This document shows, one piece after another, positions 6,862 through 62,077 of a stretch of DNA of 64,000 nt. This stretch comes from Eledone cirrhosa (Eukaryota): positions 250,480,001-250,544,000 of the forward strand of contig OZ024742.1 in NCBI GenBank assembly GCA_964016885.1. Reading direction: 5' to 3'. The position numbers and the translations under genes are program-made. The stretch's first letter is position 1; every line of letters starts with the position of its first letter. The notes beneath the pieces are model-generated. The model saw nothing but the letters and a program-made list of their open reading frames with translations, was not told where the DNA came from and searched no databases.

Positions 6862-7066
6862 TTTATCCCGAGTACAATCGGGGGTAACCACAGTAAGAAA
6901 AGTACTCAATACATAGCAGAGTATAAATATTTAATATAGAAATGGCTTCTACAGGACTACAACTGTTTCATTCCGGAGAAATCATCAGGAAGCCCTGATA
7001 GGCTTCCTGGTGATTTCTCCCGAATGAAACAGTTCTAATACTATAGAAGCCATTTCTATATTAAAT
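6862..7066. mobile_element. Short hammerhead-bearing foldback element in (TA)n
   Basis: Arms 6926-6994 and 7001-7066 are inverted; unpaired tail 6862-6925; a relative lies at 21855-22024. Confidence 0.8.
6944..6994 (-). ncRNA. Type I hammerhead ribozyme
   Basis: Reverse complement reads ggcttc-CTGATGA-tttctccggaat-GAAA-cag ttgtagtc ctg-TA-gaagcc. The plus-strand mirror at 7001-7051 is mutated (CTGGTGA). Confidence 0.75.
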
Positions 7067-7074
7067 ATATATAT

Positions 7075-7722
7075 ATATGATTTTAATGCGATGAAATATC
7101 AATGATGGTTGGCAAATCACTGACGAGGGACTAATTTTATCATATGTAACCCATGTGCAACCACGCAGTATTCTTCTTTCTTCTCATGTTTTTTATACAT
7201 ATTTACCTCGGCTGCGTTTGTCTGTTTCTCTTTTACTGCTTCCCCGTTCTCTCTGTTTCTCTCACCTTCTTTCGCCCCCTCTGTCAGTTACACTTTCTCT
7301 CGACTGACCACTTCCTCGCACTTCCACTCACTCACTCTCTGTTTCTCCCCTTCTCACTTCCTCCCGTTTGGCTAGTAGTGGGGTCTTTTCTTGCTCACAT
7401 CTCACTCACGTCGGACGGTCTGTATCTAGATCGCTCATGAAATCCACCCAGCTTATGCTGCCCGGATAACCATGTTGCTTGTTTATTTTCCTATCTTCGG
7501 TTTGCTTTTATCCTTCTATGTTGTTTACTTGTCTCACTCGCTTTACGCGATTTACTTGTTCCAATAGCTTTTTTTAGTTATTGCTCGCAACAACCTGAGG
7601 TATATGATTTTTAATGCGATGAAATATTAATGATGGTTGGCAAATCACTGACGAGGGACTAATTTTATCATATGTAACCCATGTGCAACCACGCAGTATT
7701 CTTCTTTCTTCTCATGTTTTTA
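7075..7722 (+). mobile_element. Non-coding element with ~120-bp terminal direct repeats (partial tandem), in (TA)n
   Basis: 7075-7197 is almost identical to 7601-7722; each repeat contains CTGACGA-ggg...ccc but no GAAA. Confidence 0.7.
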
Positions 7723-7979
7723 TATATATATATATATATATATATATATATATATATATATATATATATATATATAAATGAATGTTTTTGCTTTCATGAA
7801 AAGCTTGAAAAGCTGCTACAATTCATATGAACTTAAAATAATCTAATAGGTGGGTGGCTTAAAATTGAAGGGGGAGATGTCGGTAGAGACGCTTATCCGA
7901 TAAATACGACAATTGTATAGTCATTAATGAAAGCAAATACATTTTATAAACCTGCCAAATTTCTGCGTAAACCTATCGA

Positions 7980-9081
7980 TATATATATATGTGTGTGTGT
8001 GTCTCTCTCTCTCTCTCTCTCTCTCTCTCTCTCTCTCTCTCTCTCTCTCTCTCTCTCTCTCTCTCTCCCTCTCTCTCTCTTTCCCTCTCTCCCTCTCTCT
8101 CTCTCTCTCTCTCTCTCTCTCTGCGTACATAATGCAGTGTCAGAAAACACAAACAAGAAGTAAACAGCAAGAAATTCAACATTATCAATGACAATAACAA
8201 GAAACTCTACAGTGAAAATATATAGCAAGCGAGTGACCAGTTTTAAAGATACGTCGTTTAAAATGTCTAATATTACCCAACTCAATAAAACCGTGACTAA
8301 CAAAATGCTGCTGACTTAATTCAAACAAAATCTATGGAAATGAAGAAGGCAATTTATTCGAGAACACTAAGAATTGAGTTAAAGGTCATATTAATGTAAA
8401 TAGATATCGGTTACTCAAGATCGTAATGGATACAGAGCGTGTTCAAATGGAGATAGAATAATTTCAAGTGTAAGACAACAAAATGTTATCTAAAACGGTC
8501 TCAGTTAGGCCAAAGGGTTAAATGCCAGATTGATTTAAATTACGTCAAAAATAAAAATACATTAAAGAAAATAGTTATCGCTTTGTATGTTTATACACAC
8601 ACACACTCTCTCTCTCTCTCTCTCTCTCTCTCTCTCTCTCTCTCTCTCTCTCTCTCTCTCTCTCTCTGTCTCTCTATCTCTCTCTCTATCTATCTATCTA
8701 TTTCTATCTCCCCCCCCTCTCTCTCTCTCACACACACACATACATACGTATATATACATGCCAATATCTACACATTTCCCTCCCTTGCTCCCGCTCTCTC
8801 TCTCTCGCGCTCGCTCTCTCTCTTTCTTTCTCTCTCTCTCTCACTCTCTCTTTCTCTGTTTCTATACACACACGCACACACACATATATATATGTGTGTG
8901 TGTATGTATGTATATAAGAATATGCATGTATATATATATGTATATGCTTGAATGTATGAGTATATATGTGTGTATATATATATACATACAGATGCATATA
9001 TATATATATATATATATATATACATATATGTGTGTGTGTGTGTGTGTGTGTGTGTGTGTGTGTGTGTGTGTGTGTGTGTGT
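7980..9081. repeat. Compound (TC)n/(TA)n/(TG)n microsatellite clusters (7980-8122, 8593-9081)
   Basis: Direct reading; these tracts explain the RERE/SLSL/HTHT ORFs. Confidence 0.95.
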
Positions 9082-9173
9082 TTCCAACATGTCGCAGATA
9101 TCTTCTCTCTTACTGAATGTTATCAACAAGAAACGGAACATCCCAGGTTAGATTGGCCGACATACATACAAAT

Positions 9174-59288: not shown

Positions 59289-59474
59289 AACGAAGGAAAT
59301 GTGGTAAGGAACCAGATGGACCATAACGCAGAAAGTACTCAATACGTAGGGTAGTAGAGTGGGTAATAGGAACGAGTAGGACCCCGACGGCTGAGCTCAA
59401 GCCGTTTCGACGGCTAATTCGAATTAGCCGTCGAAACGGCTTGAGCTCACCCGTCGGGGTCCTACTCGTTCCTA
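59289..59474. mobile_element. Foldback family A element
   Basis: Near-perfect palindrome 59367-59474 centred on GCTAATTC|GAATTAGC. Confidence 0.88.
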
Positions 59475-59509
59475 TATATATATATATATATATATATATA
59501 TATATATAT

Positions 59510-61221
59510 AGAAGCTCAAATGCATACCAGATACAAACAAAAACAACAGACCTAACAACAATAACACTACCCACACCTATAGAAATAGCAAATGTAGGCC
59601 TAAACTTAGAAATAGACAATGAGCACCAGAAATAAATGAACCGAATACTAATATAAGGACCCCTAGGAACTATAAAAAATCCAGAGATAGGAAATACTTA
59701 TAGCTCAATCCAATATTCAACTCCTCTATAAAAACCAAATTACCTTCTACAGTCTTTAAACTAATTGACAAGCACTTCCCTAAACTTCACAAATACCATA
59801 AAATCTTTAATAGAAATACTATCAAACTATCTTACTCTACTGCAGCCAACATAGAATCACACATACATAAAATTAACTATAGAAGAATCTCTAATGAACA
59901 AACACCTACATACAAACACCATAACACCAAATACAAAACACAAACACATAACGACATCGCAACCACACACACACGTCAGAACACATCACAACAAAACATC
60001 AACAAACCCAAATCTCAGTCCATACATAACAACATACAAAACCGCATCGAAGAACCGGCACACAGGAAGGCCTCAAAATGTAATTGTCACTTACCGGATA
60101 AGTGCCCACTCCAAAATAGATGCCTGGAGTCAAATATAGTGTACCTGTGTACTATAAATTCAGGCAACTTAGCATGGCACTACATAGGTTCTACGGCTGG
60201 GGAGTTAAAAAAAAGATGGTACGTCCACAGACATTGTATAAAGAACCGTAGAATAATGAACACAACAACGCTGGCCAATAAAATCTGGCAGCTTACAGAT
60301 ATACAAACCAAGAATACGGGATTAACTGGTCGAAACTGTCAGGGGCAAAGGCCTACAAATTGGAATGTCCCACTGCGGACTTTGCAATATGGAGTTGCTC
60401 CATATTTTAAAGTACGACAAAATGCTACTTAACAGCAAAATAGAACGGTCAATTTTCTGTAGGCATAAAACAGCTACTAAATTCGCTAATTTTAAACCAA
60501 CATGATTCGATCCAACAATCCCATTATTCAAACTGAGAGTCTATTATAATAACCCATTATTATTTACTGTCAATAGATCAACTAATCACTGAATCAACAA
60601 CATCACCTCCTAACCTTTCTTTCTTCCACTCTCTTTCCCTAAAATTATTTCACCTCTTCCATTATATCCTATTATGTTCTCTTCAACTCTCATAAAACTT
60701 CCAATTTATTAATTTATCCTTTATTTAGCACTTTACTATTTCTTCATAATATAATTTAACCAATACATGTGTGTGTGTTTGATGTTTTCATGTTTAAACC
60801 ATCTCATCTTTATACTTTGACCACCACCACCGTCACAACTGTTTTCGACAATCATATTATGTTCACTTTTTTTCACACACATATATATTTTTTTACTTAT
60901 TTTTTATCATCTTTATTCTACCTTATTTATTATTATTTATTTATTATTTTTTATGGTTTTATTTTTTATTTTCTCTCTTTCTCTCTCGCTCTTTTTCTTT
61001 TTCTTTTTTCTTCTTTGTTTTTCCTAGTATATTACAAACGCCGTGTATAATTTTAACCAGTTATTCCGATGATTTGATTAAGCATACATTGTATTTAAAA
61101 TTGAGTGACACAACTTCAAGTGATTAGCAATTTTTAGACACCCTAATCAACGAAACAATTGTTAATACTGTAAATAAAACCCTTTTTATACTGTTGACCA
61201 TGTTATTCTTCACTCTTTCCC
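59510..61221 (+). mobile_element. Penelope-like element 3' part: linker, GIY-YIG endonuclease relic, 3'UTR/pLTR with hammerhead, ending in (TA)n
   Basis: KLIDKHFPKLHKYHKIFNRNTIKLSYS, CPLQNRCLESNIVY..YIGST..LKKRWYVH..TTLANKIW, CGLCNME..LLNSK..CRH. Confidence 0.88.
61058..61170 (+). ncRNA. Hammerhead ribozyme in the PLE 3' region (U4C mutation, long stem II)
   Basis: cagttatt-CCGATGA-tttgatta..taatcaac-GAAA-caattg-TT-aatactg. Confidence 0.7.
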
Positions 61222-61453
61222 TATATATATACATATATATATATATATATATATATACACACACATATATATATACACATATACACACACATATATATAT
61301 ATATATATATATATATATATATATATATATATATATATATATATATATATATATATATATATATATATATATGTATGTATATATATATATAATTATTTAC
61401 TATATTTAAACAGTGGCGCCTGTTCTTCTGGAATTTTACTTGTGTACTCGCAG

Positions 61454-61504
61454 TTTTGTCTGATGATACTGCGAATGTGCTGGTGAAACTCCAGAGTAAC
61501 AGGG
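61454..61504 (+). ncRNA. Type I hammerhead ribozyme
   Basis: ttttgt-CTGATGA-tactgc gaatgt gctggt-GAAA-ctc ca gag-TA-acaggg; TATTGAGTACTT follows at ~61550. Confidence 0.72.
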
Positions 61505-62077
61505 CACACTGCATAGTCATAATGAATGAATATTTAAATTTGATTTAGGTATTGAGTACTTTCTCAGGTCCGTCAATAATACATGTGTGTGTGTGTGTGT
61601 GTTTGTTTGTATATAAATAGATGCATATGCACACACACACACACATATGTGTGTGAATGTGTGTGTACATATGTGTGTGTGTGGTTTGTGTGTGTGTGTG
61701 ATGTGTGTGTGTGTATGTGATGTGTGTGATGTGTGTGTGTGTGTATGTGATGTGTGTGTTTGTGTGTGTGTGTATGTGAGTTACCTTAGGTGTATCTCCT
61801 GATTTGCAAGATAAGTTTTATTGCTGTTTTTGAGATTCCTCTCCCAATTACACCATGATATCATGTTATATAACCGGTGATGTTCATGACTAGCATCAAA
61901 TCTGATTCTCTGTTACATGATGAGCAACCACTTACATATACACTCGCATATATACACCCCTTAATTTGCATATATATATACATATATATATATTTATATA
62001 TACATATATATAAATATATATTCAGCTTGCTTATATATATATATATATATATATATATATATATATATATATATATA

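Follow-up and report, generated by a model that had tools for sequence, protein, structure and literature searches.

Penelope-like elements (PLEs) encode reverse transcriptases (RTs) that are the closest relatives of telomerase RT. To our knowledge, it is still open how PLEs choose their template and how their head-to-head insertions with a one-sided tail originate. Here we analyse a window of 64,000 nucleotides (nt) from the genome of Eledone cirrhosa (assembly GCA_964016885.1, contig OZ024742.1, positions 250,480,001 to 250,544,000 of the forward strand), in which short elements with hammerhead ribozymes carry a recurrent word in their 3' tails. We assign these elements to the 3' ends of Hydra-clade PLEs and the word to the 3' strand of a predicted bulged hairpin, RCTC-stem-loop-stem-TH-GAGY, which coding elements carry twice and which probably directs the start of reverse transcription.

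The Hydra clade comprises endonuclease-positive (EN+) PLEs with a C-terminal endonuclease (Craig et al. 2021, PMC8557442). In the available passages of that paper, the clade shares with the elements studied here the RW(K/R) and DKT motifs, the CxCx5C linker, the C-terminal endonuclease, a hammerhead (putative here) in the pseudo-long terminal repeat (pLTR), (TA)n targets, partial tandems, an inverted 5'-truncated copy and a one-sided tail. Tails measure about 65-160 nt here as against 30-40 nt there, and tandem units here span 3.5-6.6 kb. Those passages describe no leader hairpin, and the words "hairpin" and "stem-loop" are absent from the available part of the supplement. In the Poseidon element PAc, according to the accessible sections of a 2024 in vitro study, the tail is delimited by two RT start sites internal to the RNA 3' end, nicking and extension occur on both target strands, and the protein is predicted to form a dimer, with no signal defined for the two starts (Frangieh et al. 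2024, PMC11167929). The elements here resemble PAc in having two fixed 3' ends and a tail on one side only. Whereas the PAc binding motif is undefined in those sections, each putative start here has its own conserved leader hairpin and about 3 nt of target overlap; in place of the 30-40 nt tail and the AC-rich stem-loop inside the open reading frame (ORF) of PAc, we find tails of about 65-160 nt in the leader.

EN+ Penelope elements of Adineta likewise have head-to-head pLTRs and an optional tail at one end, and their pLTR is sufficient in cis (Arkhipova et al. 2013, PMC3846280); the model given there is self-priming on an antisense template, unlike the reading proposed here, and "hairpin" and "stem" do not occur in the part of that text available. 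Non-LTR retrozymes, as far as the accessible text goes, are short non-coding type I hammerhead repeats derived from PLE pLTRs (bioRxiv 10.64898/2026.07.22.740005; Cervera and de la Pena 2014, PMC4209133). They form tandem arrays of non-coding full-hammerhead units, whereas the window elements are single or head-to-head truncated ends and the tandem units of this genome carry an ORF; "hairpin" is absent from the available parts of both papers. The clade, the hammerheads, the tail and two start sites were already known, and the hairpin and its twin arrangement are the new part: we found no description of either in the literature searched, with subscription papers, Repbase notes and preprint supplements outside reach.

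A predicted bulged hairpin at fixed spacing to both copy ends

The motifs are preceded by ACTC or GCTC, complementary to GAGT or GAGC; between the two strands are a short inner stem and, on its 3' side, a two-base bulge (TT, TA or TC). Its recurrence was assessed in a sample blind to the motif, comprising sequences from 137 stretches (1.37 Mb) and the window that adjoin a TA run and recur inverted within 1.6 kb. Of 252 such cases, the 118 with a tail of at least 25 nt were used, and 114 shorter tails and 20 cases without a terminus were set aside; a first, strict hammerhead descriptor had missed minimal and half ribozymes. The hairpin occurs in 50 of the 118 tails and marks 11 of 40 tail clusters, compared with 0/118 in antisense, 0/118 upstream and a mean of 0.47 (largest 3) in shuffled sequence. 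Metagenome searches found no relatives.

The proposed pairs covary. Counting all loci in hand with one vote per cluster and with either the outer or the first inner pair left free, we found the outer pair to be A-T in 15 and G-C in 13 of 35 clusters (Watson-Crick in 30, 14.5 by permutation), and the first inner pair to be T-A in 17, C-G in 5 and A-T in 3 of 29 clusters (Watson-Crick in 25, 13.1 by permutation). Both counts lie above all 10,000 permutations, and shuffled DNA gave 17 and 5 scattered matches. The inner stem is fully Watson-Crick in 17 of 28 clusters. An alternative hairpin, in which AAGTA pairs with TACTT around TTGAG, was discarded as it fits some families only, and a motif-first hairpin scan was dropped as stand-alone evidence on account of its high background.

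An exact end is available for 108 tailed elements, and 47 of these, in 13 of 40 clusters, carry the hairpin. The distance from short-arm end to stem base has a cluster median of 6-12 nt in all 13 clusters and lies at 4-10 nt in 37 of the 47 elements (null about 12%). By contrast, the distances from short-arm end to bulge (22-84 nt) and from motif to terminus (24-112 nt) depend on the family, so that position, as the preliminary description of this DNA had proposed, is constrained, but through the 5' strand of the hairpin relative to the element ends and not through the motif relative to the terminus. Flanks of 11 family representatives align in 0 of 55 pairs. Copy ends overlap the TA target by a mean of 3.1 nt (1.6 expected).

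The window, part of a 3.0-Gb assembly, is AT-rich animal DNA dense in microsatellites, which dominated the repeat search. Its hairpin-bearing elements and their relatives, after whose motif positions we name sites and families, are the following, with the tail hairpin termed hairpin 1.

6861-7073, minus strand: head-to-head element with hammerhead core 6982-6988, short-arm end 6931 and tail 6861-6930
6904-6922, minus strand: predicted hairpin 1 of the 6900 element, with ACTC at 6919-6922, a 9-nt inner stem-loop, and TT bulge plus GAGT at 6904-6909
19922-20734, minus strand: 3' end of a coding Hydra family, head-to-head, with one hammerhead core on each strand (20102-20108 minus, 20642-20648 plus)
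19979-20003, minus strand: predicted hairpin 1 of the 19975 element, with ACTC at 20000-20003, CAGT/ACTG inner stem, TA bulge and GAGT
20766-20990, plus strand: 3' end of a tandem Hydra element, head-to-head, folding back within the ribozyme, with short-arm end 20910
20919-20942, plus strand: predicted hairpin 1 of the 20937 element, with ACTC at 20919-20922, TACT/AGTA inner stem, TT bulge and GAGT
21854-22024, minus strand: 6900-family element with half a ribozyme and a hairpin from GCTC (21896-21899) to GAGT (21881-21884)
24176-24526, plus strand: head-to-head element with cores 24335-24341 plus and 24269-24275 minus, short-arm end 24434, hairpin from ACTC (24442) to GAGT (24461)
43707-43940, plus strand: element of the compensated form, GCTC (43879) ... 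TT-GAGC (43904), with no match to the 10-mer of the preliminary description
59000-59232, plus strand: 3' end of another coding Hydra family, with core 59019-59025 and hairpin 59142-59168, its 5' strand mutated to TCTC (mostly ACTC in relatives)
59290-59472, minus strand: second copy of the 20937 family, exact motif at 59333-59342
59512-61221, plus strand: 5'-truncated coding Hydra-type copy with thumb, CxCx5C linker and GIY-YIG piece (59704-60432) and core 61066-61072
61395-61582, plus strand: element with core 61460-61466, motif 61552-61561 and a decayed hairpin 5' strand (relatives mostly intact, of the type ACTC-TAC-TTCG-GTA-TT-GAGT)
23951-24143, 28978-29114, 31415-31589 and 36121-36291, minus strand: further 20937-family copies with a variant motif

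The 5' strand is thus damaged in window copies 59163 and 61552 and intact in most relatives displayed. The coding copy at 59512-61221 ends at the short (proximal) site, without the hairpin; its relatives end either there or about 160 nt further on, and hairpin 1 starts 7 nt past the proximal site.

A second hairpin is present in four of the five families with copies that read through the long-arm end, 6-9 nt past that end and 25-65 nt before the ATG. It begins 9 nt beyond the long-arm end in the family of the window coding copy (4 loci), 8 nt beyond it in a family with an 830-amino-acid (aa) frame, where the loop measures 106 nt (4 loci displayed), 6 nt beyond it in the 20937 family and 8 nt beyond it in the 19975 family (2 loci each); for the last two families, hairpin 2 was predicted before their sequences were retrieved. 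The same hairpin was recognised by eye in three of six published Hydra sequences from coral and sea cucumber in the available part of the Craig supplement: Hydra-2_Amil and Hydra-2_Ajap end with it, Hydra-1_Ajap has two before the ATG, and Hydra-1_Amil and Hydra-1_Crog contain near matches. A look-alike hairpin also lies roughly 370 nt from the 3' end of Naiad_Mmer in the accessible supplement of PMC8557442, a single case that may be due to chance.

The two end types are used jointly. Across five families, the sample and the window contain 42 head-to-head pairs, of which 35 are long-short, 2 long-long, 1 short-short and 4 unclear; 35 of 38 classified pairs contrast with 19 expected if arms were chosen independently (P about 3e-8). 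Therefore, almost every paired insertion has each of the two end types once.

The loop of hairpin 2 in the 830-aa family resembles an intron, opening with GT, AT-rich throughout and closing with AG right before the bulge (L245:1098-1213; G000:C1 near 355.276 Mb), and AG directly precedes the bulge in two other second hairpins. Splicing of this candidate intron would destroy hairpin 2, possibly leaving only unspliced RNA as template, and if true this might be a reason why PLEs keep introns. Contigs of four sequencing runs of unknown kind contained no splice joint at this position, which is no evidence either way.

Clade assignment and the window motif

The elements encode a single ORF in which the RT is followed by a C-terminal GIY-YIG-type endonuclease (alignment; open frames of 784, 830 and 806 aa). 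The CxCx5C linker is found in the window piece 59704-60432 and in L268, L270 and L013; because Craig et al. give it as a Hydra-clade feature, we assign the coding piece to that clade, in place of our first guess, Neptune. Four coding families or their relatives carry RWK, RWR, RWT or RWI together with SDKT, and in an alignment inspected by eye the CCHH motif is absent and CxxC and CxH flank the conserved E and N. Insertion into (TA)n was seen. Tandem periods are about 3.5, 3.65 and 6.6 kb, compared with generally <3 kb in the clade, which is a tendency and not a strict criterion. Pfam gave no match for the PLE pieces of the window, and Rfam no hammerhead family among the 150 of 215 matches listed, only low-complexity matches below the gathering score. 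A hammerhead core, known from sequence alone, is present in three of the four coding families. The fourth, the 20937 family, has no strict CYGANGA match even in tandem copies (L268:2700-2790; window 20766-20910, 59369-59472), and its short copies fold back at about one place inside the ribozyme.

A coding origin can be traced for at least three window families. The 20937 family matches the leader of a long-ORF element (L268) at 134 of 141 nt and the 19975 family that of another (L269) at 196 of 199 nt, and for site 59163, a same-strand Hydra ORF end lies upstream of 8 of 28 similar copies. Sites 6900, 21877 and 24456 were not linked to any coding parent (0/56, 0/30 and 1/70 copies near an ORF end), and neither was 61552, where the 3 of 26 copies near an ORF end are the window locus itself. 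Three Hydra families appear young, with frames of 830 aa (L238-L267), 784 aa (L268, L271) and 806-821 aa (L269, L270); they lie partly in tandem arrays of about 6.6, 3.5 and 3.65 kb, respectively, and two of them have at least 150 matches at near-identical scores.

The word TTGAGTRCTT has 7 exact matches in the window, compared with 0.38 +/- 0.60 expected (100 shuffles, largest 3). All seven words of the preliminary description are present, the variant TAGAGTGCTT being shifted by one base to 19975-19984 (minus), and a further exact match at 59333-59342 (minus) had been overlooked. The reported distance of 20-70 nt to the terminus holds at every one of the seven sites (21, 23, 39, 44, 53 and 61 nt from motif end to microsatellite terminus, and about 60 nt, read directly from the sequence, at site 59163), as does that of some 15-30 nt past the short-arm end at the four of seven sites with a clean short arm (21-26 nt to motif start). 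A full CTGANGA core lies upstream at five of seven sites, as claimed, but 20937 and 21877 retain only the 3' half of the ribozyme. To call the elements unrelated was too strong, although tails of different families do not align: the seven sites represent six families, of which three are similar around the ribozyme. Sites 6900 and 21877 form one family (z 16), as do 20937 and 59333 (z 34), and 19975, 24456 and 59163 are alike around the ribozyme (z 3.9-8.1) without alignment of their tails (the 59163 tail was not scored).

The 10-mer is thus real but captures only a subset of a signal that is a paired structure and not a linear word: 29 family clusters divide into 15 with T and 14 with C as the last stem base, and the RCT after the stem is 55-66% conserved. 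Neither absence of positional constraint nor alignment of the tails over their whole length, the two outcomes named beforehand as fatal, was observed, given the fixed spacing of the stem base to the short-arm end and the 55 non-aligning pairs. In 970 kb sampled at fixed steps, the exact 10-mer has 24 matches, by eye 19 in such tails and 5 elsewhere. It was rejected as a genome-wide marker, since 100 of 7560 and 125 of 5040 words of the same composition equal or outrank it there.

Other tailed head-to-head families have no hairpin of this kind and fixed tails of about 58-60 nt or 42-44 nt (L021, L033, L067, L073, L108, L110, L116, L136; L011, L037, L041, L084, L087), and probably represent other PLE clades with other signals. 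The window further contains a hammerhead-like, nested inverted family without the RCTC/GAGY hairpin (3608-4562, 30346-30849; CTGACGA cores at 3860, 4072, 4253 and 30545) and a second PLE thumb fragment (57705-58130, minus) pointing away from the 59019 hammerhead. A decayed long interspersed element (LINE) with zinc knuckle, endonuclease-like and RT frames (RVT_1 match) occupies two inverted copies (1-2841 minus, 13061-17361 plus) and a fragment (32480-33526). At least 12 copies of a dispersed repeat resembling short interspersed elements (SINEs) and ending in (ATT)n lie at 17894-18738, 19324-19420, 25589-25768, 33668-35990 and 50929-55049, and another non-LTR fragment (53251-54600, minus) has, by eye, the appearance of a C-terminal zinc finger and restriction-like endonuclease, with no Pfam match.

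Proposed role of the hairpins and its alternatives

Carried twice between hammerhead and start codon, the hairpin probably serves as a binding site in RNA for the element's own protein, with reverse transcription starting about 6-9 nt upstream of each copy. The earlier proposal of a cis signal for the PLE protein, be it for template binding or for nick positioning, fits the evidence in this altered form, in which the carrier is a paired structure present twice in the full element. The Hydra protein would bind each hairpin on the leader RNA, and the nicked (TA)n target would pair with about 3 bases of AU-rich template where copying begins. Initiation at hairpin 2 would generate the long arm, with a tail containing hairpin 1 but not hairpin 2, and initiation at hairpin 1 the short arm. 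Both sites would serve in a single event, each for one DNA strand, perhaps via a protein dimer, and the outcome would be a head-to-head pair with a one-sided tail. We put forward more tentatively, at somewhat less than even confidence, that a dimer holds both hairpins of the same leader RNA and, within one event, initiates two cDNAs at opposite-strand nicks in (TA)n. Because each copy omits its directing hairpin, only tandem read-through RNA could make full insertions, which, if this two-site arrangement is true, would explain why PLEs need partial tandems.

Small RNA stem-loops that are bound by an RT and fix the start of copying are familiar from the 3' ends of stringent LINEs and their SINEs (eel UnaL2 type) and from hepatitis B epsilon. 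Those stem-loops are single, whereas the hairpins here are twin. Each LINE insert also receives a copy of the stem-loop, whereas the hairpin here, with its start site upstream, would be missing from the copy that it directs.

Several observations weigh against this proposal. Seven read-through relatives of 61552, the fifth family, have no hairpin 2 within 150 nt, Hydra-1_Obim has no hairpin in the ends displayed in the available supplement (by eye), and a strict hairpin is absent from 29 of 40 tail clusters. Hairpin-less tails overlap the TA target equally (mean 3.0 nt), so tails can form without it. The covariation counts are not independent, given the common ancestry of the clusters, and the descriptor by itself discriminates poorly (224 matches in 1.37 Mb against 84-100 in shuffled DNA and 69-210 for control cores). 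Nine window copies have weak predicted folding (z -0.3 to -2.3), most of their minimum-energy folds being unlike the bulged form, and the evidence for the strand is thin, with G-U in 8 clusters and A-C in 3. In the accessible account of PAc (PMC11167929), moreover, the starts lie in an AC-rich stem-loop inside the ORF and have no homology to the target.

The main rival, which we consider unlikely, assigns the hairpin to single-stranded DNA, either cDNA or an extruded cruciform, where the GIY-YIG endonuclease would read it, cut at a fixed distance and trim an intermediate to the two ends. Spacing and arm pairing fit trimming equally well, and the mostly Watson-Crick inner stems (17/28 clusters) would pair in DNA of either strand. 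In the available passages, Craig et al. ascribe the tail to endonuclease resolution (PMC8557442), and the D. virilis endonuclease, as cited in the accessible part of PMC11167929, needed the tail for cleavage. That same part reports, however, that in PAc, the sole working system, the tail ends coincide with RT start sites and not with cut sites. The prevalence of G-U over A-C (8 to 3 clusters) also argues against a DNA structure, and with loops of up to 106 nt, a cruciform is unlikely to extrude from duplex DNA. Many relatives of 61552 (L219-L237) close hairpin 1 with a CTTCGG loop, which we take to be the extra-stable UUCG tetraloop and which favours a role in RNA.

An expression function, be it promoter, translation or splicing of the 5' untranslated region of the downstream tandem copy, with copy ends falling nearby through the chance of preceding AU-rich stretches, is improbable. 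Both hairpins lie in the leader, the second some 25-65 nt before the ATG and with an intron-like loop in one family, and ends overlap TA with or without a hairpin; but from such a function one would expect neither a spacing of 6-9 nt that recurs at both sites of four families nor the pairing of long with short arms. A promoter word in duplex DNA, the other suggestion made earlier, is disfavoured, as it would not covary across loops of 8-106 nt. Descent of a functionless relic word from a common ancestor is very improbable and already largely refuted: the traced families all belong to one clade, several window sites to the same or related families and 11 of the 24 exact matches in 970 kb (by eye) to one family, but none of 55 family pairs has alignable flanks, while compensatory changes preserve the stem, which also persists across phyla.

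If protein binding at the twin hairpins is true, they constitute a concrete, mutable signal with a numerical prediction, a start 6-9 nt upstream of each hairpin and one per arm, and a direct test is possible since young families with intact frames exist in the genome. Programmed insertion could also profit from a portable hairpin that fixes an internal RT start. For the Hydra clade, the hairpin provides an annotation rule for the true ends of its elements, and its use as a start signal would explain the long-puzzling one-sided tail of PLE insertions.

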